Shown here one piece after another: positions 1 to 13,789 of a DNA stretch of 13,789 nucleotides. Source of the DNA: a virus. Lineage: Duplodnaviria; Heunggongvirae; Uroviricota; Caudoviricetes. Made by a program: the position numbers and the translations under genes. The notes beneath the pieces were generated by a model. That model did no database searches, had not been told where the DNA came from, and saw nothing but the letters and a program-made list of their open reading frames with translations. The DNA lies in IMG/VR virus record IMGVR_UViG_2568526722_000003, positions 1 through 13,789 of that record. One strand, written 5' to 3'. Numbering within the stretch: position 1 is the stretch's first letter; each line of letters opens with the position of its first letter.

Positions 1-161
1 TTTAACCAGGCCGTAACGCATTTGCATGCTATTGATTAGCCCGGTTGGCCCTAAACGGCGTATACTCAGGTAACGAGATACATTATCAGCAGTAAGCGAA
101 GAAGGCAGACCGCGCGCCGAGATCTCGATAAAGTCAATGTTTCCGTACAGGCATAGCGTCC

Positions 162-557
162 TCACATTTCATAGGTAATGACATAAGTCAGATCGGCTGA
201 ACTCCACAGGCCCGCATCATCGTCGCGCCGGTAGTCATAGCCGCTGGCCACCATACTGGTGATCAAATCTGACAGTGCCGGGATATCGCTCATCACCGGA
301 TAAATCCGGGACTCCATCCACGCATCCAGCTCTGAATCCGGCACCTGAGCAGGCAGGAAAACTTCGATATGCAGCTCCGCCTGCCAGGTATCGCTGTCCA
401 GCTCTTCGCCCGTGTATTCAGCGCCGGTGAGATAAACGGCAACTGCCGGAAAATCCGCCTCATCAAAAACAGCGGGGCGACCATCAAAAAACGTCGCCCC
501 GGTGTCATGCTTCTCCAGTGCATCCAGTACGGCTGCACGGAGTTCAGTATGTTTCAT
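162..557 (-). CDS. U: Minor tail protein U (lambda gpU), 131 aa
   Basis: Translation MKHTELRAAVLDALEKHDTGATFFDGRPAVFDEADFPAVAVYLTGAEYTGEELDSD... matches lambda gpU over full length as recalled; ATG start; 4-nt overlap with Z stop. Confidence 0.93.
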   Translation of the reverse strand: MKHTELRAAVLDALEKHDTGATFFDGRPAVFDEADFPAVAVYLTGAEYTGEELDSDTWQAELHIEVFLPAQVPDSELDAWMESRIYPVMSDIPALSDLITSMVASGYDYRRDDDAGLWSSADLTYVITYEM

Positions 558-1132
558 CGCTTTATTACCATCCTCAGTTGATGCTGCAGCGCATAGCCCA
601 GCTCTTTCGGAAGACGTTCACGCCGTATCCGTTCAATATTCTGTTTAAACGCCGTGGTCAGCGGCACCGCCATCGGGATTTTCACCACATCAATGGGGTA
701 ACGGTTTTTCCCGGCCACACGCTGCATAACATGCCACCGGCCGTTTTTCAGTTGCTGAATAAACGCGCCGGGAATACGACGGTTACCCACCACAAGCACA
801 CTGCCGCCACCTTTCAGGGCTGAACGCTGCCCCTTTTTACGACGCCTGCGTCGGGACAGGACAACCCGCGCGTTACCCAGCTTTATTACGGGCAAATCCC
901 CCCGGTTAACCTTGATTCTGGCCTGCGGATTTTTGACCGTGGCCCTTTTCAGCCTGGCCCTTTCCTTTACCAGTTTCCGGCGTACCTTTGTCTCACGGGC
1001 AACCTGTACCACCGACTGCGATATCGCGGATGAAGCAACGCGGTTAATGGCCATTGCGGCGGCACCGGGCACCGCCGTTCTGCTGATACGGCTGAGGTTT
1101 TCAACGGCCTGCTCAAGACCTTTTATGGCCAT
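554..1132 (-). CDS. Z: Tail completion protein Z (lambda gpZ), 192 aa
   Basis: Translation MAIKGLEQAVENLSRISRTAVPGAAAMAINRV... matches lambda gpZ as recalled; ATG at 1130-1132; lambda order FI-FII-Z-U preserved. Confidence 0.93.
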   Translation of the reverse strand: MAIKGLEQAVENLSRISRTAVPGAAAMAINRVASSAISQSVVQVARETKVRRKLVKERARLKRATVKNPQARIKVNRGDLPVIKLGNARVVLSRRRRRKKGQRSALKGGGSVLVVGNRRIPGAFIQQLKNGRWHVMQRVAGKNRYPIDVVKIPMAVPLTTAFKQNIERIRRERLPKELGYALQHQLRMVIKR

Positions 1133-1143
1133 ACATCCCCCTT

Positions 1144-1497
1144 TCAGCGGCGACGGTTAACGGCAGGCGGTACGCCCCGCCCAAGCCAGAGATGACAGCT
1201 TCCGCCATCATCCGGCGAAATCCGGTCTATCCAGAAGTTTTCCTCACCGATGGTCAGCGTGTCGCCGCGCCGCAGCTGCCGCACATCATCAGTCCGGACA
1301 AACAGGGACGGGCTGGAGCCTTCAACGCGCACGCCCTGTCCGGCATAGCTGATATTTTCAGGGTCATCAAAAACACCACGTATCACAGCACCGGACTGCT
1401 CACCGGATGTCATGGTGGCTGACGTTCCCATGTACCCGCGTATCGTTTCATCGGCGCAGGCAATGGCAGCATCGAACAGGTTATCGAAATCAGCCAC
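1144..1497 (-). CDS. FII: Head-tail joining protein FII (lambda gpFII), 117 aa
   Basis: Translation (M)ADFDNLFDAAIACADETIRGYMGTSATMTSGEQSG... matches lambda gpFII as recalled; start codon here is GTG, preceded by GGGAGG 6 nt upstream. Confidence 0.92.
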   Translation of the reverse strand: MADFDNLFDAAIACADETIRGYMGTSATMTSGEQSGAVIRGVFDDPENISYAGQGVRVEGSSPSLFVRTDDVRQLRRGDTLTIGEENFWIDRISPDDGGSCHLWLGRGVPPAVNRRR

Positions 1498-1508
1498 AGC
1501 GCCTCCCG

Positions 1509-1907
1509 TTATTGCATTCTGGCCAGGCCGCGCTCTGTCATTTCGGCTGCCACACCGGCAGAGACACGAAACGCCGTTCCCGGCAGCACAAATGCCACAG
1601 GTTCATCCCGCGTGGCGTGAAGTGCATCAGTATGCAGCTTCACCAGTGCCACGACCGTGACCAGTTCAGACGTATCCAGAATCACGGTATCCGGCTGCGC
1701 TGATCCCACCTCATTTTCATGTCCGGTCAGCACATTTTCCCGGCTGAGAGGGGTGTCCTGACCGGCAGTTTCATCCGTGTCATCAAGCTCCTCTTCCAGC
1801 TCTGCCACACGGAGCGCCAGTTCTTCTTTCGTCCCCGTCAGGCTGACATCACGGTTCAGTTGTTCACCCAGCGAGCGGAGACGGGCAATCAGTTCATCTT
1901 TCGTCAT
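1509..1907 (-). CDS. FI: DNA-packaging/head assembly protein FI (lambda gpFI), 132 aa
   Basis: The track ORF (1509..1946) contains MTKDELIARLRSLGEQLNRDVSLTGTKEELALRVAELEEELDDTDE..., the lambda gpFI sequence as recalled; real start is the ATG at 1905-1907 with GGAGGA Shine-Dalgarno; the upstream 13 codons are read-through of intergenic sequence. Confidence 0.9.
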   Translation of the reverse strand: MTKDELIARLRSLGEQLNRDVSLTGTKEELALRVAELEEELDDTDETAGQDTPLSRENVLTGHENEVGSAQPDTVILDTSELVTVVALVKLHTDALHATRDEPVAFVLPGTAFRVSAGVAAEMTERGLARMQ

Positions 1908-1948
1908 GGACTCCTCCACAGAGAAACAATGGCCCCGAAGGGCCATGA

Positions 1949-2046
1949 TTACGCCAGTTGTACGGACACGAACTCATCAGGGTCAGCCAGCAGCATCAGC
2001 GGTGCTGACTGAATCATGGTGAACTCACGCGCCGGATCCGCCAGAT
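1949..2046 (-). pseudogene. E: C-terminal remnant of major capsid gene E (last ~24 codons ...FTMIQSAPLMLLADPDEFVSVQLA*)
   Basis: Minus-strand frame just upstream of FI encodes FTMIQSAPLMLLADPDEFVSVQLA-stop, recalled as the gpE C-terminus; homology stops upstream where sequence switches to Nu1. Confidence 0.5.
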
Positions 2047-2202
2047 TTCGGCATACCATTTTATGACGGCGGCAGAGTCATAAAGCACCTCATTACCCTT
2101 GCCACCGCCTCGCAGAACGGGCATTCCCTGTTCCTGCCAGTTCTGAATGGTACGGATACTCGCACCGAAAATGTCAGCCAGCTGCTTTTTGTTGACTTCC
2201 AT
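2014..2202 (-). pseudogene. nu1: Terminase small subunit Nu1, N-terminal 52 codons only, fused to foreign tail (IWRIRRVSSP*)
   Basis: MEVNKKQLADIFGASIRTIQNWQEQGMPVLRGGGKGNEVLYDSAAVIKWYAE matches lambda Nu1 residues 1-52 as recalled; the next 10 codons are not Nu1 and run into the gene E remnant; junction around 2040-2047. Confidence 0.85.
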
Positions 2203-2379
2203 TGTTCATTCCACGGCCAAAAACAGAGAAAGGAAACGACAAAGGCCCAAAAGCTCGTTTTCAGCACCTGTCGTTTCCTTTCTTTTCAGGGGGTATTTTA
2301 AATAAAAACATTAAGTTACGACGAAGAAGAACGGAAACACCTTAAACCGGAAAATTTTCATAAATAGCAAAAACCCGCG

Positions 2380-2391
2380 AGGTCGCCGCCC
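2380..2391 (-). other. cos: cos site: 12-nt lambda cohesive end GGGCGGCGACCT (cosN core), with cosB/Nu1 leader on one side and lambda right-end sequence on the other
   Basis: Minus strand reads ...CCGGCGATCCGACAGGTTACG|GGGCGGCGACCT|CGCGGGTTTTTGCTATTTATGAAAATTTTCCGGTTTAAGG..., matching the joined lambda right and left ends as recalled; lies about 180 nt upstream of the Nu1 start. Confidence 0.85.
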
Positions 2392-2590
2392 CGTAACCTG
2401 TCGGATCGCCGGAAAGGACCCGCAAAATGATAATAATTATCATCTGCATGTCACAACGTGCATCTACGCCATCAAACCACGTCAAATAATCAATTATGAC
2501 GCAGGTATCATATTAATTGATCTGCATCAACTTAACGTAAAAACAACTTCAGACAATACAAATCAGCGACACTGAATACGGGACAACCTC

Positions 2591-2824
2591 ATGTCAACGA
2601 AGAACAGAACCCGCAGAACAACAACCCGCAACATCCGCTTTCCTAACCAAATGATTGAACAAATTAACATCGCTCTTGATCAAAAAGGGTCTGGGAACTT
2701 CTCAGCCTGGGTCATTGAAGCCTGCCGCCGAAGACTGTGCTCAGAAAAAAGAGTTTCGCCTGAAGCAAACAAAGAAAAGAGTGACATTACTGAATTGCTC
2801 AGAAAGCAGGTCAGACCAGATTGA
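2591..2824 (+). CDS. Small ribbon-helix-helix-like DNA-binding protein (77 aa), possibly YlcI/DUF3950-like
   Basis: ATG ORF; basic N-terminal tail (KNRTRRTTTR), then predicted beta-strand NIRFP and two helices (NQMIEQINIALDQ / FSAWVIEACRRRL), typical RHH topology; AT-rich; the family name is from memory and unverified. Confidence 0.55.
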   Translation: MSTKNRTRRTTTRNIRFPNQMIEQINIALDQKGSGNFSAWVIEACRRRLCSEKRVSPEANKEKSDITELLRKQVRPD

Positions 2825-2881
2825 AGCAATTTAGATAATCGTGCAGACTAGGTACCCTCATATCACATGGAAGGTACTACA

Positions 2882-3292
2882 ATGGCTCAGGTTGCCATTT
2901 TTAAACAAATATTCGATAAAGTGCGAAATAATTTAAACTATCACTGGTTTTATTCTGAACTAAAACGTCACAATGTCTCACATTACATTTACTATTTAGC
3001 CACAGAGAATATTCATCTTGTTCTTGAAAACGATAATACGGTTTTAATAAAAGGACAGGGTAAGGTTGTAAATGTAAGATTTTCAAAAAATAAATGCCTT
3101 ATAGAAGCCACATTAAAAGGATTCAAATCAGGAGAGTTATCATTTTACGAATACAGGAAAAATCTTGCTACAGCAGGGGTTTTCAGATGGATTACAAATA
3201 TCCACGAAAACAAAAGGTATTACTATACCTTTGATAATTCATTACTCTTTACTGAGAACATTCAGAACACTACACAAATATTTCCGCACTAA
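2882..3292 (+). CDS. AT-rich hypothetical protein (~137 aa), possibly DUF1398/YbcV-like moron
   Basis: Uninterrupted ORF; ATG at 2882 has a GGAAGG Shine-Dalgarno 7 nt upstream (the track start at 2867 has none); strongly AT-rich codon usage unlike the flanking phage genes; the family assignment is a recollection. Confidence 0.55.
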
Positions 3293-3337
3293 ATCATAAC
3301 GTCCGGTTTCTTCCGTGCCAGAACCGGACTCGCTGGC

Positions 3338-3502
3338 ATGATGAAATATGTGTACCCGGTAACCCCGGTGTGCATCGTTTTTGATTATTCCCGCACACTC
3401 GCGCAGAAGGAGTTCCCCGTCGGGCTACGGTCTCTGTTAATACGGGAATACGGCGACGATACAGCGCATGATGTGTCAGGCTTGAATACCTTTATCCTTT
3501 AA
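3338..3502 (+). CDS. Possible small ORF, 54 aa (MMKYVYPVTPVCIVFDYSRTLAQKEFPVGLRSLLIREYGDDTAHDVSGLNTFIL)
   Basis: ATG-initiated ORF just under the 60-aa track cutoff; sits between a stem-loop (3301-3329) and hairpin element A; no clear Shine-Dalgarno. Confidence 0.2.
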   Translation: MMKYVYPVTPVCIVFDYSRTLAQKEFPVGLRSLLIREYGDDTAHDVSGLNTFIL

Positions 3503-3970
3503 AAGGGATATCAGTTAAGTTATCCCGTGTAGGGTATAAGCCATTATCAAAGCCACTCTGTAGGGAATGGCTTTTGTGATGGCATCACTTACTCTTTACG
3601 CTGCTATCCCACTCATCCCGGAATTTTGATGGGTTATTGAAACCTTCTGCTGACATAACAACTCCTTCAATGTTTGGCTGAAATTAGGATGTCTTTCCAT
3701 CAGTCCGCCACCACAAAGAATCTTTTTTGCCATAAGGCAGGAGGTTCATCTTTCAGTGGCTGCCGGTGTTATTTCCCCACTTACTGGCTTGGGTTGTTTC
3801 GTGGTACTGCCGTTAACTGGTGGCGCACAGATTTAGTTAAATCCGTTCTCGCCTGAACTATCTTTTACATACCCGGATTGTGGGGATGTAAATCACGGTT
3901 TCATTATCAAGCCCACCAGTAGATGGGCTTTGTAATGAAGAGTTGTTATGAAAATTGCTCTAAACAAGCA

Positions 3971-4459
3971 TTAATAGCCATCAGAAGTAATCGCTACAGA
4001 TTTCAATCCCTCAATGTCATCCTTGGACAGGGCGAACCATTCACCGTGCTTTCTCTTTGCGGCAAATTTGCGATGAAGCATGTTTTCAGTTTCTCTTCCA
4101 CCAGGGATCAGGCACTCAAGCTTCAAGCAGTCTGGTCCAGAGTTGCCAAGCGATTTGATGCGTTGTGGAATGTTGGATGAATACCCAATTTTGGTTAGCC
4201 CAGTTTTCTTCGATGACAAAACGTATACCTGAGGAGGTTCTTTTCTCTGGTCTTCCATTACACGTCTCATTGTTGCCATAAGTCCGCCGTGCATCAGCAT
4301 TTCAACAAAGAACGCTGACCGAACACCTGACGACTTAAGCATGCCAGAAAATTCACTTGCCAATTCCATTAACTCTGCGATGTTTTCAGGAACTTTTTGG
4401 CAGTTATCTTCCTTGTATAAGGAAATCATTCTTTGAAGCTTTTCTTCTAATTGGTTCAT
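3971..4459 (-). CDS. T5orf172 / GIY-YIG-like domain protein (~162 aa) with an unrecognised N-terminal region
   Basis: C-terminal half (VYVLSSKKTGLTKIGYSSNIPQRIKSLGNSGPDCLKLECLIPGGRETENMLHRKFAAKRKHGEWFALSKDDIEGL) fits the T5orf172/MUG113 pattern (YVYxL...KIG.T.N..RR...L...E..LH..F...R..GEWF); the track start at 4495 is GTG, the first ATG is at 4457-4459 (MNQLEEK...). Confidence 0.6.
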   Translation of the reverse strand: MNQLEEKLQRMISLYKEDNCQKVPENIAELMELASEFSGMLKSSGVRSAFFVEMLMHGGLMATMRRVMEDQRKEPPQVYVLSSKKTGLTKIGYSSNIPQRIKSLGNSGPDCLKLECLIPGGRETENMLHRKFAAKRKHGEWFALSKDDIEGLKSVAITSDGY

Positions 4460-4608
4460 AGCGTCTTTACCTTTTAGAAAGTGAGCCTGTCTCACAGAAA
4501 AGCCGCCCCGAGATGGTCGCCACCATATACGGCAGTTCTCAGGCTCAACTTTCTGAAAGGCTCGGGTGATGTAATATGCGCGTGAGATGCGCTGTGAAAT
4601 TCAGATGT

Positions 4609-4632
4609 AAAAAAAGCCCCGCATCGCGAGGC
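4609..4632 (-). terminator. Rho-independent terminator downstream of Rz/Rz1
   Basis: Minus strand GCCTCGCGATGCGGGGC (7-bp GC-rich stem with one G-U pair, 3-nt loop) followed by TTTTTTT, about 30 nt after the Rz stop. Confidence 0.6.
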
Positions 4633-4664
4633 TCATTAAATGGACTTTGTGATTTGCAAAAAAA

Positions 4665-5123
4665 TTATTTCAGGCATTGCGTCCTGATGTATTCCTGCAG
4701 GTAGTTAACCTGCGCGGTTATCTTGTCGATTCCACTTCGGAGACGGTAATAATTGAGTTCAGCATCTGCTGTAAGTCCTGGGCTTTCTCCATCGCCCATG
4801 CCGCTGGCTCCGGTCGTTGACTTTGCACAGGTGGCGGCGACTTGCAGGCGCTTACGCCCAGCAGAAACATCAGCACGGAGACTTTCGATAGTCGCGTTAG
4901 CATCAGCAAGCTCCTTTGTGTATCTTGCGTCGAGTTCTGCTACATCACGTTGACGCTTCCGCATGTCAGCGATGGTGGCGTTCGCCTTCTCCAGTTCACT
5001 GGCCTTGTTATCGCGCTGCTCTTTGTAGGCGATTGCGTTATCACGGTAATGATTAACAGCCCATGACAGGCAGACGATGATGCAGATACCCGGCACTACC
5101 TGCTGAGGTGCCATAGGCGACAC
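4665..5123 (-). CDS. Rz: Spanin inner-membrane subunit Rz (i-spanin), N-terminus chimeric
   Basis: From [19 protein letters not shown]...KELADA... onward resembles lambda Rz as recalled; the first ~12 codons (from a GTG start) are encoded within the holin stub in another frame. Confidence 0.7.
4718..4903 (-). CDS. Rz1: Spanin outer-membrane lipoprotein Rz1 (o-spanin), embedded in Rz in the +1 frame
   Basis: [36 protein letters not shown]...: signal peptide with lipobox (LGVSAC) followed by a proline-rich region, wholly inside Rz as in lambda Rz/Rz1; ATG at 4901-4903. Confidence 0.7.
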
Positions 5124-5151
5124 CCGTTGTTAACTTATCCATGGATTTCAT
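5059..5151 (-). pseudogene. Holin remnant: first ~22 codons of a phage-21/DLP12 EssD-type holin ([22 protein letters not shown]), then out-of-frame read into Rz and stop
   Basis: ATG at 5149-5151 with GAGGTG Shine-Dalgarno; N-terminus matches S21/EssD as recalled; after ~22 codons the sequence continues as Rz in another frame; no endolysin ORF lies between holin and Rz. Confidence 0.65.
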
Positions 5152-5260
5152 AACCCCACCTCGCAGACAAAGCGGGTGTAAATTGAGGGAATACTACGAA
5201 ACGTAACAGACTCGGAGTCAGTGAATAACTCAGGTATTGGGTTATCAGCTAATATCGAGA

Positions 5261-5296
5261 CTCAAAAAATGGAAAAACCCACTCGACGGCGGGTTT
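5261..5296 (-). terminator. Candidate intrinsic terminator on the late-operon strand upstream of the holin stub
   Basis: Minus strand AAACCC-gccgtcgagt-GGGTTT followed by TTCCATTTTTTGAG. Confidence 0.3.
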
Positions 5297-5724
5297 AAGC
5301 TGTGTGACGAAGTAACCACTCTTAACAGCATAACCAATTTTTTACGTACGTAAACCACTAAATGATATTTGCGAGAATGCTACCGAGTATTGAAAACACC
5401 ACTACAAATACATAAGCAAATCTCAACAAATAACCAACAAATAATTCCCAGTGTTATTTTTAGCCGATTTAAATTGAACCTTCAAATCATAGAGCACTTA
5501 TAAATAACAACCGTTAATATAAATTGGCTAATAGATTTATTTTTATTCAGCCAAGAGCCATGAATAGGATTCGATAGAAAAAAGTTCAGATAAAAATAGA
5601 GATCTACTTCACAAATCAAACGAGAAACCAAAACTTACATCTTGAAATAATCATATTGATTAGATGAATATTTATCGCGCAGTGACATCATTTTTTAATA
5701 ATAGTTCAAAAAAAAGGGCTCACG

Positions 5725-6822
5725 ATGAAAAAATTAACAGTGGCAATTTCTGCTGTAGCTGCATCAGTACTGATGGCGATGTCTGCTCAGGCAGCTGAAA
5801 TTTATAATAAAGACAGTAACAAGCTGGATCTGTACGGGAAAGTTAATGCTAAGCACTACTTCTCCTCTAATGATGCAGATGATGGTGATACTACTTATGC
5901 CCGTCTTGGCTTCAAAGGTGAAACCCAAATCAACGATCAACTGACTGGTTTCGGTCAGTGGGAATATGAATTCAAAGGCAACCGCGCTGAATCTCAAGGT
6001 TCCTCCAAAGATAAAACCCGTCTTGCCTTCGCTGGCCTGAAATTCGGTGACTACGGCTCCATCGATTACGGCCGTAACTACGGTGTAGCATACGACATCG
6101 GTGCGTGGACTGACGTTCTGCCAGAATTCGGTGGCGATACCTGGACCCAAACAGATGTGTTCATGACTGGTCGCACCACTGGTGTTGCAACCTATCGTAA
6201 CAACGACTTCTTTGGTCTGGTTGATGGTCTGAACTTTGCTGCTCAGTACCAAGGCAAAAACGATCGTAGCGATTTCGATAACTACACCGAAGGTAACGGT
6301 GATGGCTTCGGTTTCTCTGCTACCTATGAATACGAAGGATTCGGTATCGGTGCAACTTATGCGAAATCTGATCGTACCGACACTCAAGTTAATGCAGGGA
6401 AAGTTCTTCCTGAAGTATTTGCTTCCGGTAAAAATGCAGAAGTTTGGGCCGCAGGTCTGAAATATGACGCTAACAACATTTACCTGGCCACTACCTATTC
6501 TGAAACCCAGAATATGACTGTATTTGCTGATCACTTCGTTGCTAATAAAGCTCAAAACTTCGAAGCTGTTGCACAATATCAGTTCGATTTCGGTCTGCGT
6601 CCGTCCGTTGCTTACCTGCAATCTAAAGGTAAGGATCTTGGAGTATGGGGCGATCAGGACTTAGTCAAATATGTTGATGTAGGTGCAACCTATTACTTCA
6701 ACAAAAATATGTCTACTTTCGTTGATTACAAAATCAACCTGCTTGACAAAAATGACTTCACTAAAGCACTCGGTGTAAGCACTGATGACATCGTTGCTGT
6801 AGGTCTGGTTTACCAGTTCTAA
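5725..6822 (+). CDS. nmpC: OmpC-family outer-membrane porin (NmpC / phage Lc type), 365 aa, intact
   Basis: Signal peptide [23 protein letters not shown]|AEIYNKD, porin motifs and C-terminal ...VAVGLVYQF; full-length and uninterrupted; opposite orientation to Q and the lysis genes, as for DLP12 nmpC and PA-2 lc. Confidence 0.9.
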
Positions 6823-6830
6823 TCTGATTA

Positions 6831-6872
6831 CGAAAAAGATATGTTGCGGGAGGCTTTGCCTCCCCAACATAT
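6831..6872 (-). terminator. Candidate late terminator (tR'-like) downstream of Q on the minus strand
   Basis: Minus strand ATATGTTGGGGAGGC-aaag-GCCTCCCGCAACATAT (about 15-bp stem) followed by CTTTTTCG; about 140 nt downstream of the Q stop. Confidence 0.45.
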
Positions 6873-6960
6873 AAGTGGCTCCCTCAAGCCACTTCCTTTA
6901 GGAGCACAACCTTGCTTCTAACTATATAAACCTTCTGTTATATATTACCCTTTATTTTTG

Positions 6961-6990
6961 GGGGCGTTGCAACGCCCCATTTTTAATAAT
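6961..6990 (+). terminator. Rho-independent terminator for the porin gene; perfect 18-bp palindrome
   Basis: GGGGCGTTGCAACGCCCC followed by ATTTTTAATAATTTTT on the plus strand. Confidence 0.5.
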
Positions 6991-7011
6991 TTTTAGTAAA
7001 CAACTGGCATA

Positions 7012-7395
7012 TTAATTAGAGTTATTAACAACGATATCCATCTCTAACCGGATATCTAATGCCATTAACATCCCTTCAATTATGCCCTCAGCCTTCTGTA
7101 ACCTTTTCCCGATATAACCATCAGAGCAGCAATGCTTACCTGCCAGTGACATGAATGTCATACCGACTACATAATAATCTACTAATAAATCGTGCAAATC
7201 GCTGTTGTTCTTTTTCAGACGGGCCATGCACCCGCAAATAATCATCGCGTCATCGTCACAACATTGCGGGCGAGATTTTACTTTTGAAGTAATTAATCCC
7301 TTAAAACCGGCGGCAATGGACGACCAGGTCACATCTTCATGATTATTAGCCGCCCACGCTCCCCAACGCTCAAGAACCATCTGAATATCACGCAT
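7012..7395 (-). CDS. Q: Late-gene antiterminator Q, phage 21/82 (DLP12 QuuD) type, 127 aa
   Basis: [34 protein letters not shown]...[16 protein letters not shown]... matches DLP12-type Q as recalled; ATG at 7393-7395 (the track start at 7410 is TTG). Confidence 0.85.
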
Positions 7396-7480
7396 CAACT
7401 TACTCCACAAAAATCAGGCCAGAACGCCAATTACAAGCAAAAATCAACAAAACAGTATTAGTTGATTGTTATCTCTGACT

Positions 7481-7621
7481 TCATACTCCTGCTCCTGTCA
7501 GGGTTTTGGCGTAATTCTTCAGTATTCGGTAATCGGTCAAAACAGAACCGGGGGAACGATATAAGCGCAGACGCCCCCAGCGGTGGCGAAGAAGTTCTGC
7601 CATATTAAACTCAAACATCAT
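7481..7621 (-). CDS. ylcG: Small protein YlcG-like (46 aa)
   Basis: Hand-translated [49 protein letters not shown]; its ATG overlaps the rusA stop (ATGA); matches DLP12 YlcG as recalled; below the track size cutoff. Confidence 0.6.
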
Positions 7622-7980
7622 TCATTCCCCATTTCGGTGATGGTCAGTTCCAGCCTCCCACCTTTGGTAACAGGCATCTTCACAACGCGGTAATCAACGA
7701 CCTGAGCATCATCCAGCCAGAAACCTGCTTTAGTGAGTGCGTCAAAAGCGGCTTTTTGCAGATTATCCAGGTCACGGCGACGGCGATCCGGCATGTGGCA
7801 CTCAATGCGGATTTTCACAGGCATAGCCAGGCCGATATCCAGCATTGCGTTTTTAATGATTCGGGCGACGTTATCGCGGTATGCCTGCCCCTCTGCGCTG
7901 ACGTGCGTGCGCCCTCGATTATGGCGGTAGTAGCGGTTATTGCTCGGCGGCCAGGGTAGTGTGATGTGGTAAGTATTCAC
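7618..7980 (-). CDS. rusA: Holliday-junction resolvase RusA, 120 aa
   Basis: (M)[37 protein letters not shown]...[28 protein letters not shown]... matches RusA as recalled; GTG start overlapping the upstream stop (GTGA). Confidence 0.93.
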
Positions 7981-8066
7981 GCCTTAATTACCCCCTCTTT
8001 CAGCCAGATAACCTGCGTTCTCGCCATACCTTCCAGCGCGCATTCTTTTGCATATGCAGCATCGAC
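7977..8066 (-). pseudogene. ybcO: C-terminal remnant of a YbcO-like (DUF1364) gene, about 29 codons
   Basis: Frame ending ...[29 protein letters not shown] with the stop overlapping the rusA start; matches the YbcO C-terminus as recalled; further upstream the frame hits a stop and no N-terminal YbcO-like sequence appears in any frame. Confidence 0.4.
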
Positions 8067-8186
8067 TTGCTTGGCATGCCCTTTACCGGCAATCTTCTGT
8101 ATGCGCTAAACCTAGATAGAATCCACTCTGTGCACATTGAAGCCCGCTCTATGCTTCCTTTCAGGTATTGAAGGGATTGAGATGGG

Positions 8187-8534
8187 CTAAGCATTATTGG
8201 CCTCCTGCATCAGGAGAAAGACAATCATGGCGGCGCGGAGAGGTCTGGTATCAAATATTGGGCTTACGCCTTTTGCATCCACACACCATTCAGTTAACTG
8301 GTCTAAGATAGAAATCCTGTATTTCTCAATAATCGGCCATGAAGCGCTCGGATCATTGCAGTAGTCAGGCAAATGATTTAATGGCTCAAAAGTTGTATCA
8401 GCATTTCCGTAATACCATTTGTTGGTGTTATTCCCTGATGTTTCCGGTTTACTTGCCCAAAGGCCTTTAAAAATTATGTCTCCTACCATTCTGTTAATTT
8501 CAAAATCACTTAACTGTGAATAATCCATTGTCAT
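8187..8534 (-). CDS. Hypothetical nin-region protein (~115 aa)
   Basis: [92 protein letters not shown]...; ATG overlaps the ninE stop (ATGA); GAGGAA nearby; family not recognised. Confidence 0.5.
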
Positions 8535-8707
8535 TTCCTCGCACGATATCTTAGCCACCGGATATCCCACAGGTGAGCTGTGTAATTGAAGGTTTTTACG
8601 TCAGATTCTTTTGGGATTGGCTTGCGTTTATTTCTGGAGCGTTTCGTTGGAAGGTATTTGCAGTTTTCGCAGATGATGTCGGTGAAACTTCGTCGCTGTC
8701 GCCTCAT
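8531..8707 (-). CDS. ninE: NinE, 58 aa
   Basis: [58 protein letters not shown] matches lambda NinE as recalled; ATG overlaps the methyltransferase stop. Confidence 0.75.
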
Positions 8708-9231
8708 GCCGCCCTCCTGACGCCCTGCCCGAACGCCATCAATGCCGCTTTGGATACGGTAGTAAACATCCGTCGAGGACTGATGAACGGTCGCCAAATC
8801 AGCAGCATGGAGCCTTTGCTGTTTCCCTTCTTCTCCAGCCCTGTCGATGGTTCGATAAAATTAATCCGTCCATCAGTGATAATGCGAACTTCGTCGACAC
8901 TCTCCAGAGCCTTGCTGAACCATCCGACTGACATATCCTCTGGCACAAGCATAACTACCGTCTGTCGCTGTTGTATGCACTGCTCAGCGGCTTTTTCCAC
9001 CCACGGCCTGATATTGCTGTACGGTGGGTTATTCCAGATTGCACCGTGGCTTACCCACTCAGAATTGAGCGCGTCGTCGGCCTCAGTTAGCCAGTGAGCA
9101 CACAGAGCATTTTTGTCGCTCGCTGCCGAATCCAGCCAGAATCCAAACTCAATATCCAGTGCATCAAAAAGCCAAAGCGGCGTTTGCCAGCAGTCCTTGT
9201 CGTGTGCTGGCGTATTTGATTTGATAGTCAT
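8704..9231 (-). CDS. Phage Dam-like DNA N6-adenine methyltransferase (~175 aa)
   Basis: [50 protein letters not shown]...[16 protein letters not shown]...: NPPY catalytic motif and DxxA...WxTP pattern of the small phage N6-A methyltransferase family; ATG at 9229-9231 with GGGGAGA upstream; overlaps the ninB stop. Confidence 0.75.
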
Positions 9232-9737
9232 GCAGCTCGATCTCCCCATCTCGCTTTCCACTCCAGAGCCAGTCTCGCTTCGTCTGACCACTTAACGCCA
9301 CGCTCTGTACCGAATGCCTGTATAAGCTCTAATAGCTCCGCAAATTCGTTTACACGCATCCTGCTGGTTGACTGGCCTATTACCACAAAGCCATTCCCGG
9401 CAAGGTTAGGAACAACATCCTGCTGCTTTAATGCTGCGGTAAACACACACTTCCAGCTTTCTGCATCCAGCCAGCGACCATGCCATTCAACCTGACGAGA
9501 GACGTCACCAAGGCAAGCCCAAAGCTTTCGATTCTGGTCTAAGCTGCGGTTGCGTTCCTGAATGGTTACTACGATTGGTTTGGTTGGGTCTGGAAGAATT
9601 TGCTGTAACCGCCCTATTCTCTCGCTGAATCGCAAACCGAAATCACGAGTAGAAAGCGCACTGAATCCGATAGACCTTACGGTGCTGGCTGAATACCACG
9701 AACAGATTGAAAGCAACCTGCAACGTATTGAGCGCAA
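9228..9737 (-). CDS. ninB: Recombination protein NinB (Orf), C-terminal ~125 aa lambda-like, N-terminal ~44 codons atypical with no canonical start
   Basis: From QQILPDPTKPIVVTIQERNRSLDQNRKLWACLGDVSRQVEWHGRWLDAESWKCVFTAALKQQ... to the stop matches lambda NinB as recalled; the preceding 44 codons do not, and the track start is a TTG. Confidence 0.65.
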   Translation of the reverse strand: MRSIRCRLLSICSWYSASTVRSIGFSALSTRDFGLRFSERIGRLQQILPDPTKPIVVTIQERNRSLDQNRKLWACLGDVSRQVEWHGRWLDAESWKCVFTAALKQQDVVPNLAGNGFVVIGQSTSRMRVNEFAELLELIQAFGTERGVKWSDEARLALEWKARWGDRAA

Positions 9738-9839
9738 GAATCATCGAGTTTGGTATAGCAAGCCAAGTGAGTTCGGTATAACTTGTCAAGGAAGACAAAA
9801 GGTTAAAGGGAAATCCATTCCATTGGCATGAGGTACGTA

Positions 9840-10169
9840 ATGAAGAAAATTGATTACAAGTCCATACCAAAACCAATAGACTCAGCATCAGAGCGAAAAA
9901 AACACAAAAAAGAGGCTGAAAAATTAGCAAATTATATCAGTTTTATTAGAAACAATGCTCACGGCGATGGCGACAGGAAGTTGCTTTCAGATGCCCGGAC
10001 CCAAGCGTTCAGTATACTTCGTAAGCAGATGCAATATCGTCTTCATCCAGGCTACATAATTGAAATTCGCCCGACTGAAAGACAATTGTTCTTATTAAAC
10101 TCTGTCTTTGACTTTGTAAACGTAGTTGGAGATCTTATCGACAGGTCTGTAGATAAGGCTCCTGGGTGA
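9840..10169 (+). CDS. AT-rich hypothetical protein, 3' end cut by IS1 (stop supplied by the IS1 left end)
   Basis: ORF MKKIDYKSIPKPIDSASERKKHKKEAEKLANYISFIRNNAHGDGDRKLLSDARTQAFSILRKQMQYRLHPGYIIEIRPTERQLFLLNSVFDFVNVVGDLIDRSVDKAPG*; ATG at 9840 with GAGG 8 nt upstream; low GC; the last codons and stop (GG TGA) are IS1 sequence; no family recognised. Confidence 0.45.
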   Translation: MKKIDYKSIPKPIDSASERKKHKKEAEKLANYISFIRNNAHGDGDRKLLSDARTQAFSILRKQMQYRLHPGYIIEIRPTERQLFLLNSVFDFVNVVGDLIDRSVDKAPG

Positions 10170-10219
10170 TGCTGCCAACTTACTGATTTAGTGTATGATG
10201 GTGTTTTTGAGGTGCTCCA

Positions 10220-10495
10220 GTGGCTTCTGTTTCTATCAGCTGTCCCTCCTGTTCAGCTACTGACGGGGTGGTGCGTAACGGCAAAAGCACCGCCGGACAT
10301 CAGCGCTATCTCTGCTCTCACTGCCGTAAAACATGGCAACTGCAGTTCACTTACACCGCTTCTCAACCCGGTACGCACCAGAAAATCATTGATATGGCCA
10401 TGAATGGCGTTGGATGCCGGGCAACTGCCCGCATTATGGGCGTTGGCCTCAACACGATTTTACGTCACTTAAAAAACTCAGGCCGCAGTCGGTAA
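10220..10495 (+). CDS. insA: IS1 InsA (transposition inhibitor / transposase N-terminal part), 91 aa
   Basis: [43 protein letters not shown]... matches IS1 InsA. Confidence 0.95.
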
Positions 10496-10917
10496 CCTCG
10501 CGCATACAGCCGGGCAGTGACGTCATCGTCTGCGCGGAAATGGACGAACAGTGGGGCTATGTCGGGGCTAAATCGCGCCAGCGCTGGCTGTTTTACGCGT
10601 ATGACAGTCTCCGGAAGACGGTTGTTGCGCACGTATTCGGTGAGCGCACTATGGCGACGCTGGGGCGTCTTATGAGCCTGCTGTCACCCTTTGACGTGGT
10701 GATATGGATGACGGATGGCTGGCCGCTGTATGAATCCCGCCTGAAGGGAAAGCTGCACGTAATCAGCAAGCGATATACGCAGCGAATTGAGCGGCATAAC
10801 CTGAATCTGAGGCAGCACCTGGCACGGCTGGGACGGAAGTCGCTGTCGTTCTCAAAATCGGTGGAGCTGCATGACAAAGTCATCGGGCATTATCTGAACA
10901 TAAAACACTATCAATAA
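10414..10917 (+). CDS. insB: IS1 InsB' frame (transposase catalytic part, expressed as InsAB' by -1 frameshift)
   Basis: ...[72 protein letters not shown]... matches IS1 InsB. Confidence 0.93.
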
Positions 10918-11042
10918 GTTGGAGTCATTACCAGAAAGCAGGTCTTTCTCTCGTGTAGAGATAAGCGAGTCAGAGTTATGGGGTATATCAAATAATCCTG
11001 TAAACCACGCTCACCAACGAAATCCAAACAAAAAGTGGTCAT

Positions 11043-11067
11043 AACCCGCTCAGGCGGGTTTCATTTT
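11043..11067 (+). terminator. Candidate intrinsic terminator upstream of ea10 (possibly tL2-like)
   Basis: AACCCGC-tcag-GCGGGTT followed by TCATTTTCA. Confidence 0.4.
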
Positions 11068-11231
11068 CACGCAAACAAAAGAATAAACACTGCACTGTGT
11101 ATTCATTCCAACGAGTGAATACACGGAGCAATGTCGCTCGTAACTAAACAGGAGCCGACTTGTTCTGATTATTGGAAATCTTCTTTGACCTCTAATGTGA
11201 GGGCGATTTTTTTCTGTGAGGATATGAACAG

Positions 11232-11600
11232 ATGTCAAACATCAAAAAATACATCATTGATTACGACTGGAAAGCATCAATAGAAATTGAAATCGACCAT
11301 GACTTAATGACAGAGGAAAAACTTCACAAGATTAATAATTTCTGGTCAGACTCTGAATACCGACTCAATAAACACGGCTCTGTATTAAATGCTGTATTAA
11401 TCATGCTGGCGCAACATGCTCTGCTTATAGCAATTTCAAGCGACTTAAATGCATATGGTGTTGTGTGTGAGTTCGACTGGAATGATGGAAATGGTCAGGA
11501 AGGATGGCCTACAATGGATGGTAGCGAAGGAATAAGAATTACCGATATCGATACATCAGGAATATTTGATTCAGATGATATGACTATCAAAGCCGCCTGA
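11232..11600 (+). CDS. ea10: Ea10 (lambda early protein, ssDNA-binding), 122 aa
   Basis: MSNIKKYIIDYDWKASIEIEIDHDLMTEEKLHKINNFWSDSEYRLNKHG...; size and position immediately upstream of cIII match lambda ea10 as recalled. Confidence 0.75.
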   Translation: MSNIKKYIIDYDWKASIEIEIDHDLMTEEKLHKINNFWSDSEYRLNKHGSVLNAVLIMLAQHALLIAISSDLNAYGVVCEFDWNDGNGQEGWPTMDGSEGIRITDIDTSGIFDSDDMTIKAA

Positions 11601-11672
11601 GCGCGGCGTTACCGCATACCAATAACGCTTCACTCGAGGCGTTTTTCGTTATGTATAAATAAGGAGCACACC

Positions 11673-11837
11673 ATGCAATATGCCATTGCAGGGTGGCCTG
11701 TTGCTGGCTGCCCTTCCGAATCTTTACTTGAACGAATCACCCGTAAATTACGTGACGGATGGAAACGCCTTATCGACATACTTAATCAGCCAGGAGTCCC
11801 AAAAAATGGATCAAACACTTATGGCTATCCAGACTAA
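11673..11837 (+). CDS. cIII: CIII (FtsH/HflB protease inhibitor), 54 aa
   Basis: Hand-translated [54 protein letters not shown] matches lambda CIII; AAGGAG Shine-Dalgarno upstream; the track merged it with kil. Confidence 0.9.
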   Translation: MQYAIAGWPVAGCPSESLLERITRKLRDGWKRLIDILNQPGVPKNGSNTYGYPD

Positions 11838-11949
11838 ATTCACTATCGCCACTTTTATTGGCGATGAAAAGATGTTTCGTGAAGCCGTCGACGCTTATAA
11901 AAAATGTATATTAATGCTGAAACTGAGATCAAGCAAAAGCATTCACTAA
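11806..11949 (+). CDS. kil: Kil (host FtsZ/cell-division inhibitor), 47 aa
   Basis: [47 protein letters not shown] matches lambda Kil as recalled; overlaps the cIII 3' end as in lambda. Confidence 0.85.
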
Positions 11950-12024
11950 CCCCCTTTCCTGTTTTCCTAATCAGCCTGGCATTTCGCGGGCGCTATTTTC
12001 ACAGCCATTTTCAGGAGTTCAGCC

Positions 12025-12321
12025 ATGAACGCTTATTACATTCAGGATCGTCTTGAGGCTCAGAGCTGGGCGCGTCACTACCAGCAGATCGCCCGTGAAG
12101 AGAAAGAGGCAGAACTGGCAGACGACATGGAAAAAGGCCTGCCCCAGCACCTGTTTGAATCGCTATGCATCGATCATTTGCAACGCCACGGGGCCAGCAA
12201 AAAAGCCATTACCCGTGCGTTTGATGACGATGTTGAGTTTCAGGAGCGCATGGCAGAACACATCCGGTACATGGTTGAAACCATTGCTCACCACCAAGTT
12301 GATATTGATTCAGAGGTATAA
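12025..12321 (+). CDS. gam: Gam (RecBCD inhibitor), GamS form, 98 aa
   Basis: [98 protein letters not shown] matches lambda Gam. Confidence 0.93.
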
Positions 12322-12326
12322 AACGG

Positions 12327-13112
12327 ATGAGTACAGCACTCGCAACGCTGGCAGGGAAGCTGGCTGAACGTGTCGGCATGGATTCTGTCGACCCACAGGA
12401 ACTGATCACCACTCTTCGCCAGACGGCATTTAAAGGTGATGCCAGCGATGCGCAGTTCATCGCATTGTTGATCGTCGCCAACCAGTACGGCCTTAATCCG
12501 TGGACGAAAGAAATTTACGCCTTCCCTGATAAGCAGAACGGCATCGTTCCGGTGGTGGGCGTTGATGGCTGGTCCCGCATCATCAATGAAAACCAGCAGT
12601 TTGATGGCATGGACTTTGAGCAGGACAATGAATCCTGTACATGCCGGATTTACCGCAAGGACCGTAATCATCCGATCTGCGTTACCGAATGGATGGATGA
12701 ATGCCGCCGCGAACCATTCAAAACTCGCGAAGGCAGAGAAATCACGGGGCCGTGGCAGTCGCATCCCAAACGGATGTTACGGCATAAAGCCATGATTCAG
12801 TGTGCCCGTCTGGCCTTCGGATTTGCTGGTATCTATGACAAGGATGAAGCCGAGCGCATTGTCGAAAATACTGCATACACTGCAGAACGTCAGCCAGAAC
12901 GCGACATCACTCCGGTTAACGATGAAACCATGCAGGAGATTAACACTCTGCTGATCGCCCTGGATAAAACATGGGATGACGACTTATTGCCGCTCTGTTC
13001 CCAGATATTTCGCCGCGACATTCGCGCATCGTCAGAACTGACACAGGCCGAAGCAGTGAAAGCTCTTGGATTCCTGAAACAGAAAGCCACTGAGCAGAAG
13101 GTGGCAGCATGA
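12327..13112 (+). CDS. bet: Bet (Red-beta single-strand annealing recombinase), 261 aa
   Basis: Full-length match to lambda Bet ([44 protein letters not shown]...). Confidence 0.96.
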
Positions 13113-13789
13113 TACCGGACATTATCCTGCAGCGTACCGGGATCGACGTGAGAGCTGTCGAACAGGGGGATGATGCATGGCACAAATTACGGCTCGGCGT
13201 CATCACCGCTTCAGAAGTTCACAACGTGATAGCAAAGCCCCGCTCAGGAAAGAAGTGGCCTGACATGAAAATGTCCTACTTCCACACCCTGCTGGCTGAG
13301 GTTTGCACCGGTGTGGCTCCGGAAGTTAATGCTAAGGCGCTGGCCTGGGGAAAACAGTACGAGAACGACGCCAGAACCCTGTTTGAATTCACTTCCGGCG
13401 TGAATGTTACTGAATCCCCGATCATCTATCGCGACGAAAATATGCGCACTGCCTGCTCTCCCGATGGTTTATGCAGTGACGGCAACGGCCTTGAACTGAA
13501 ATGCCCGTTTACCTCCCGGGATTTCATGAAATTCCGGCTCGGTGGTTTCGAGGCAATAAAATCGGCTTACATGGCCCAGGTGCAGTACAGCATGTGGGTG
13601 ACGCGAAAAGATGCCTGGTACTTTGCCAACTATGACCCGCGCATGAAGCGTGAAGGCCTGCATTATGTCGTGATTGAGCGGAATGAAAAGTACATGGCGA
13701 GTTTTGACGAGATGGTGCCGGAGTTCATCGAAAAAATGGACGAGGCACTGGCTGAAATTGGTTTTGTATTTGGGGAGCAATGGCGATGA
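13109..13789 (+). CDS. exo: Exo (Red-alpha 5'-3' exonuclease), 226 aa
   Basis: Full-length match to lambda Exo ([40 protein letters not shown]...GFVFGEQWR*); ATGA overlap with bet; the stop codon is the last 3 nt of the window. Confidence 0.96.

Follow-up and report, generated by a model that had tools for sequence, protein, structure and literature searches.

The locus examined here lies in a 13,789-nucleotide stretch of DNA from a virus of the Caudoviricetes (IMG/VR record IMGVR_UViG_2568526722_000003, positions 1 to 13,789; hereafter the window), whose + strand runs in the leftward (pL) direction of lambda, with cIII, kil, gam, bet and exo in order at 11673-13789. A + strand open reading frame (ORF) extends from 9828, or from the ATG at 9840, to 10169. 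A preliminary description had assigned it to one AT-rich gene spanning 9606-10169, cut by IS1 and facing the nin genes. Alignment with the genome of phage 434 identified the ORF as the 5' part of gene CPT_434B_48 (UMO75388.1; PHROG 12139; cluster P0001), whose 289-residue product carries the label 'Nun C-terminal peptide-containing protein'. The fragment matched positions 1-108 of the 289 in the PHROG 12139 profile (E = 2e-69) and was 97.2% identical to the phage 434 protein by tblastn, with 98.4% identity in DNA; its substitutions relative to phage 434 (K46R, G58S and D107A) all match the E. coli allele P0002. The proposal that IS1 interrupts an uncharacterised phage accessory gene, of which the ORF is a remnant, is thus borne out, and the possibility that it has no homologues anywhere can be dropped. 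The low GC content is also real (0.40-0.43 across 9600-10200 versus ~0.50-0.53 in the flanks), as is the gene's own Shine-Dalgarno sequence, whose position coincides with an annotated ribosome-binding site of phage 434. The segment comprises more than one gene, however: 9606-9831 is the 3' part of the antiterminator gene N (Table 1).

The native sequence stops at 10164 (blastn); the TGA at 10167-10169 and two bases of the Gly-109 codon belong to the end of IS1. The element shows the expected features (768 bp, ~23-bp imperfect terminal inverted repeats, insA-insB' with a frameshift), and in a near-identical genome the Prokaryotic Genome Annotation Pipeline (PGAP) called it 'IS1-like element IS1A family transposase, programmed frameshift'. 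IS1 does directly follow the ORF, as had been proposed, but it has not replaced the C-terminus: the last 36 codons and the stop survive beyond it, with 35 of 35 amino acids identical to residues 255-289 of the phage 434 protein, and this fragment keeps a Nun-type RNA-polymerase arrest peptide. What the gene has lost is a 433-bp stretch adjoining IS1 (codons 109-253), as delimited by two blastn blocks against phage 434 locus L001 (window 9606-10164 = L001 3767-4325; window 10933-12400 = L001 4759-6226). A simple IS1 insertion duplicates ~9 bp of its target. No target-site duplication was seen here, the 9-bp flanks being AGGCTCCTG and AGAAAGCAG, and we attribute their inequality to the 433-bp IS1-adjacent deletion. 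The closest complete genome, that of E. coli O9:H10 Res13-Lact-PEB20-37-A, has the same joint between N and ninB (see below) and the same left IS1 joint with a deletion of only 141 bp; relative to the IS1 of this sister genome (L013 4766-5533), the window lost a further 292 bp at the right end of the element. These alignments are consistent with stepwise growth of the deletion by successive IS1-adjacent deletions. Two other broken forms are present in public databases: P0008 is a Bet(1-23)::gp48(217-289) fusion, and P0009 is a 107-aa product with the window's IS1-derived '...DKAPG' end and an unrelated N-terminus. Their make-up suggests repeated rearrangement at this locus.

The segment preceding the ORF translates as ...NRPILSLNRKPKSRVESALNPIDLTVLAEYHEQIESNLQRIERKN..., the C-terminal two-thirds of N, and is 98.4% identical in DNA to L001 3767-3992 (blastn). 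It matched PHROG 271, 'anti-termination protein N-like' (E = 5e-11), and PGAP lists it in a near-identical genome as 'antitermination protein N, incomplete, missing N-terminus'. At 9605/9606 this 5'-truncated N is fused head-to-head to a 5'-truncated ninB; PGAP labels the ninB position 'recombination protein NinB' in NZ_CP062853. Since the two truncated genes abut in this manner, a single deletion has taken the N 5' end and nutL together with pL/OL and the immunity region, cI, cro, cII, O, P and ren. The ORF faces the nin genes because this deletion joined N to ninB, and for no other cause. The same joint was found in the E. coli O9:H10 strains Res13-Lact-PEB20-37-A and PEB21-38-A, in which the PGAP NinB ORF runs on into N-derived sequence. 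A promoter had been proposed for the ORF (TAGCAA-N15-TATAAC). The letters are present at 9756-9782, but they lie within N, match the -35 consensus at 3/6 positions with a 15-nt spacer and fail a sigma-70 scan; that scan found 2 promoter-like sites in the region versus 2.6 expected by chance, that is, no excess. Nor do any partner genes appear to have been lost, as had been supposed: downstream, ea10, cIII, kil, gam, bet and exo stand in phage 434 order.

Table 1. Features at the locus of the interrupted gene (window coordinates)
Feature	Coordinates	Strand	Remarks
ninB without ~first 22 codons	9228..9605	-	right-hand side of the deletion joint; NinB match from ...QQILPDPTKPIVV on
antiterminator gene N, 3' two-thirds (~codon 34 to stop)	9606..9831	+	5' end, nutL and pL deleted
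Shine-Dalgarno GAGG	9830..9833	+	overlaps the N stop; 6 nt before ATG 9840
5' fragment of the 289-codon Nun-tailed gene (codons 1-108 plus 1 nt)	9840..10164	+	orthologue of phage 434 CPT_434B_48
IS1 (IS1A-like), 768 bp	10165..10932	+	23-nt imperfect inverted repeats 10165-10187 and 10910-10932; insA/insB' on + strand
3' fragment of the same gene (last base of codon 253, codons 254-289, TAA)	10933..11044	+	ESRSFSRVEISESELWGISNNPVNHAHQRNPNKKWS; codons 254-289 plus stop at 10934-11044; homology resumes at L001 4759
intrinsic terminator overlapping the stop codon, tL1 position	11043..11069	+	scan: AACCCGCTCAGGCGGGTT then T run
ea10 (DUF2528), next pL-operon gene	11232..11600	+	Pfam PF10800, E 4e-46; PHROG 646; collinear with phage 434

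A search for homologues of the fragment found intact copies not only in phage 434 but also in 84-93 of 5426 complete E. coli genomes (~1.6%), where the gene is always annotated 'hypothetical protein'; it occurs in only 2 phage records. The cluster identical to the phage 434 protein, P0001, has 1042 member sequences, and its E. coli label is likewise 'hypothetical protein'. Other close family members are 68, 57, 47, 42 and 36% identical to the phage 434 protein, and family length is 288-290 aa. All close members with recorded neighbours lie among lambdoid-phage genes, and 6 of 7 are found where the pL early operon begins. The gene starts 8 bp after N in phage 434 and L006, and 1 bp after N in L015 and L016. 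In L004 it comes directly after a cI-like repressor gene, with no N gene called, which is the position of nun in HK022. This last locus (L004 2801-3983) belongs to a P22-like metagenomic phage, whose 290-aa homologue is the first gene after the repressor, behind a 310-bp leader. In phage 434 the gene has N upstream, and the terminator, ea10, cIII, kil, gam, bet and exo follow downstream; the window copy differs in being split by IS1 and in having lost codons 109-253, pL and the N 5' end. An intrinsic terminator 3' of the stop was present in all 5 members whose DNA was compared, with compensatory GC/CG changes, and the same terminator is annotated in phages 434 and HK75. We infer that the gene shares the immediate-early pL transcript with N. 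At L017 3836-5873, the 36%-identical member P0006 is divergent from the ninG/Q/lysis genes with ~530 bp between; L017 may be another prophage that, like the window, is without its immunity and replication region.

The C-terminal tail is the part of the protein with a known counterpart. Its last 14 residues, VNHAHQRNPNKKWS, are identical to residues 96-109 of HK022 Nun (P18683; 6alg_N, that is 6ALG chain N; phmmer against PDB sequences, E = 9e-4), and in both proteins an acidic stretch lies ahead of them. The final 13 correspond to Nun N97-S109, the segment wedging into the RNA polymerase cleft. Only residues 87-109 of Nun are ordered in its complex with the elongating polymerase, and all known arrest determinants lie there: mutations at H98, R102, K106/K107 and W108 impair function, N97 and H100 complete a contact network with RNA, template strand and the beta' rudder, and Nun minus its 13 C-terminal residues does not bind RNA polymerase (PMC5386594). 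Each of N97, H98, H100, R102, K106, K107, W108 and S109 is kept in phage 434 and in the window remnant. The first seven of these do not vary among six family members whose overall identity is 36-68%; in P0003-P0007 all eight but the terminal Ser are invariant. Substitutions in the tail are confined to Q101, N103, P104 and N105, and its DNA shows synonymous differences. From the seven invariant residues and the synonymous DNA changes we conclude that, as judged by this substitution pattern, the tail is under selection in the Nun-tailed family. In phage PA28 (L003 1450-1587) and 11 Stx1a phages, a 45-codon ORF directly downstream of N, gp26 of PA28, encodes no more of Nun than its last 45 residues, among them the arrest peptide. 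This 'Nun-like' mini-ORF shares its position and C-terminal peptide with the phage 434 gene and differs in having no core domain; it may be a remnant or a mini-protein.

The structure of the intact protein, which is basic (pI 9.5) with 2 Cys in total, was predicted with AlphaFold2 (AF2). A 3-sequence alignment gave an unusable model (pLDDT 43); the rerun with 24 sequences, used throughout, gave pLDDT 82.3 and pTM 0.71 with a confidently folded region of ~210 residues. The predicted elements are a helical hairpin at 16-65 (helices 16-38 and 43-65), a strand at 72-77, helices spanning 80-145, a beta-sheet across 152-217, helices at 221-228 and 232-259 and a disordered tail at 260-289. The topology is therefore one strand, a helical bundle and then the rest of the sheet, and the WED-REC-WED arrangement of TnpB has that same strand/bundle/sheet order. 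In a Foldseek search of the PDB the top twelve matches were all of Cas12 type (E 0.04-0.4), and in BFVD three of the six best matches were giant-virus proteins named 'Transposase' (probabilities 0.75-0.90), so that the two comparisons are in agreement. Residues ~70-220 are thus shown, by prediction and comparison, to fold in the model like the WED and REC lobes of TnpB/Cas12, and the predicted fold contains these N-terminal lobes. The ~65 residues that follow the WED sheet are helices and disordered tail; with so few residues left and two cysteines in the protein, there is no RuvC (D-E-D) domain and no zinc finger/TNB.

Distant relatives of the core, 210-330 aa long, were collected with HMMER by searching the family profile against 1.84 billion representatives. 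A sister clade (P0010-P0027, P0029-P0032; L009-L012; 200-330 aa) combines the WED/REC-like core with an S-x-S-Y-S/A-R-V-D-F segment, and its tail is a conserved ...GGLPSLGKRR in place of the Nun peptide. Its sources are four genomes of Betaproteobacteria (Dechloromonas, Burkholderia, Crenobacter and Neisseria) and metagenome contigs. In the Neisseria metagenome-assembled genome the gene stands alone between trpE-like and purK genes, and the contexts in the four genera gave no functional clue. The clade has no name or domain in any database. The GGLPSLGKRR tail had no match among PDB sequences, and a second large homology search returned neither names nor Pfam domains.

Taken together, the window carries a broken phage 434 gene, and the intact protein, a TnpB-like core with a Nun tail, is on balance probably a transcription arrest factor. 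The most economical reading is that of a Nun-type factor whose boxB-binding arginine-rich motif (ARM) would have been replaced by a WED/REC-like nucleic-acid-binding core. Its gene would be expressed from the immediate-early pL transcript that also carries N, or through transcription continuing out of cI. By means of the core, the protein would dock on a specific nucleic acid (nascent RNA, or DNA close to an elongation complex), perhaps that of a competing phage; tethered in this way near particular elongation complexes, the protein would block translocation with its tail. Lambda-type boxB/nut cannot be the target, because phage 434 itself uses a lambda-type N. In phage 434 as in HK022, the gene lies where the pL operon begins, next to cI/N, with the same terminator DNA behind it; HK022 is without N, whereas phage 434 carries it, and Nun has 109 aa with an N-terminal arginine-rich boxB-binding motif, whereas the phage 434 protein has 289 aa and the predicted core. 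An N-terminal Lys-rich helix (residues 17-32, SERKKHKKEAEKLANY) was considered as a Nun/N-type ARM because of its similar spacing. It was rejected: it is rich in Lys, its Tyr is replaced by Cys or His in P0003-P0006, and AF2 packs it in the hairpin. More tentatively, the core could be an exapted WED+REC module of TnpB/Cas12, stripped of its nuclease and fused to the Nun arrest peptide. As a recognition lobe derived from a transposon, it would aim the RNA polymerase 'wedge' at specific elongation complexes, and the protein would act as a programmable or sequence-specific exclusion factor based on transcription arrest. If so, the ...GGLPSLGKRR sister clade might deliver another effector peptide. 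An exclusion or defence role of the intact gene is plausible.

Several observations weigh against this assignment. The literature yielded no experiment on the phage 434 protein, and its function is assigned by inference. It is the fold that links the core to TnpB, and the Foldseek E-values given above are weak; the 24 family members had no Pfam match at E ≤ 10, unrelated singletons aside, and no TnpB/Cas12 sequence was among the PDB matches of the family profile at E ≤ 10. No arginine-rich boxB-binding motif is conserved in the family. The upstream-DNA contacts of Nun, H93 and R94, are both replaced by N in phage 434 and in the window and are variable in other members. Phage 434 and HK022 DNA are almost identical over the last 14 codons and ~100 bp downstream, so phage 434 itself could have acquired its tail recently, by mosaic exchange. 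Finally, the different tail of the distant relatives indicates that the core does not need the Nun peptide.

The near-identity of phage 434 and HK022 DNA around the stop codon is that of a typical mosaic joint, and with distant core relatives carrying another tail it might be argued that the Nun-like tail is a functionless recombination scar from a nun-carrying phage, with all activity in the core. This is very improbable. P0004, P0005 and P0006, only 36-47% identical to phage 434, keep VNHAH.R..(K/R)KKW; the tail DNA has diverged to ~67-83% identity among members in register, with synonymous changes, and the substituted residues are at positions not implicated in arrest. A role in the phage's own transcription, and not in that of competitors, deserves somewhat more attention. 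The protein would then assist or oppose N in the timing of early expression, for instance by enforcing stops at tL1-type sites, or would stand in for N where N is missing. In favour of such a role, only 1-8 bp separate the gene from N, its end always coincides with the first pL terminator, and in L004 it takes the position of N after cI. We nevertheless regard this role as unlikely: HK022 is also without N and has nun there, but the phages on which Nun acts are others (PMC5386594), the residues conserved in the tail belong to an arrest peptide and not to the N C-terminus, and most lambdoid phages with the same N type do without the gene, given its scarcity among phage records and E. coli genomes.

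The predicted WED+REC fold would also suit an RNA-guided, TnpB-derived factor of TldR/dCas12-like type, brought to a DNA target by a phage guide RNA so that the Nun tail stops the polymerase; nuclease-dead TnpB derivatives that regulate transcription, some of them phage-encoded, are known from the literature. We judge this decidedly improbable, since in contrast to TnpB/Cas12, TldR and dCas12f the phage 434 protein has no RuvC domain at all, rather than an inactivated one, and no zinc finger. For its family there is also no detectable omega-RNA, IS200/IS605 or CRISPR context, or sequence-profile similarity to TnpB/Cas12. RNAalifold on five loci, in or after the 3' end of the gene, gave only the terminator hairpin, and an Rfam scan for guide-type RNA returned only the cIII thermoregulator; a guide encoded in trans is still conceivable. 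The downstream non-coding DNA is common to 327 phages, most without the gene, and is generic to ea10-carrying phages, and the upstream neighbour is N. The suggestion first made for this ORF was a rex/sieB-type gene, small and self-contained, with an accessory or defence function, a promoter of its own and an orientation opposite to the nin genes; IS1 would have deprived it of its C-terminus and partners. In favour of this suggestion were the low GC, the good Shine-Dalgarno sequence and a location on the pL side, in the accessory region that in lambda contains sieB and ral. It is scarcely credible now, and the phage 434 alignment largely refutes it: full-length homologues have 288-290 aa and follow N in the same operon, as its second gene in phage 434, the candidate promoter is internal to N and does not pass the scan, the C-terminal codons survive upstream of genes collinear with phage 434, and the orientation is a product of the deletion. 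Neither the fragment nor the full-length protein nor the distant relatives had a match in PADLOC, Pfam or NCBIfam.

Elsewhere in the window, the cIII thermoregulator RNA (Rfam RF01804, 88.5 bits) is intact ahead of cIII at 11660-11718 (+). A 365-aa porin gene (5725-6822, +) lies between the Q-type antiterminator gene quuD and lysis-gene remnants and is preceded by a very AT-rich run (GC 0.28-0.33 at 5250-5700), so that the layout of quuD, porin gene and lysis remnants at 5250-6822 is the nmpC-like arrangement of DLP12. Positions 1-5150 hold assorted pieces of prophage genes on the - strand (tail U, a tail protein, a head-tail joining protein, FI and packaging-gene fragments), with a DUF1398 gene (2882-3292, +), a GIY-YIG nuclease gene (3971-4459, -), a lysis protein gene and an essD fragment; this patchwork confirms heavy decay of the element. 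In the closest complete genome, that of Res13-Lact-PEB20-37-A, the locus is part of a cryptic prophage of DLP12 type, next to argU and fimZ. Lacking pL and doubly broken, the window copy is, by its sequence, a promoterless, internally deleted pseudogene in a decayed prophage of this type.

The Nun peptide had already been noted in the GenBank record of phage 434; the phage 434 genome announcement does not mention the gene. A literature search found nothing linking TnpB and Nun, and nothing on 'Nun-like' lambdoid proteins or this phage 434 gene, and the TnpB-like core appears to have been reported nowhere before. The family is best seen as one of Nun-type arrest factors, of which the window copy is a decayed member. 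For the window itself the outcome is negative: the 'unknown gene' is a dead fragment, and its odd orientation arose from IS1 activity and a prophage-decay deletion. Beyond it, the well-known phage 434 and ~90 complete E. coli genomes carry an unstudied early protein that joins the jamming peptide of Nun to a TnpB/Cas12-like half. Two consequences, both open to direct test with existing Nun assays and Nun-resistant RNA polymerase alleles, would follow if this reading is true: Nun-type arrest would be a modular strategy, in which one arrest peptide is used with interchangeable targeting domains, and a nuclease-free, RuvC-less branch would be added to the domesticated relatives of TnpB.

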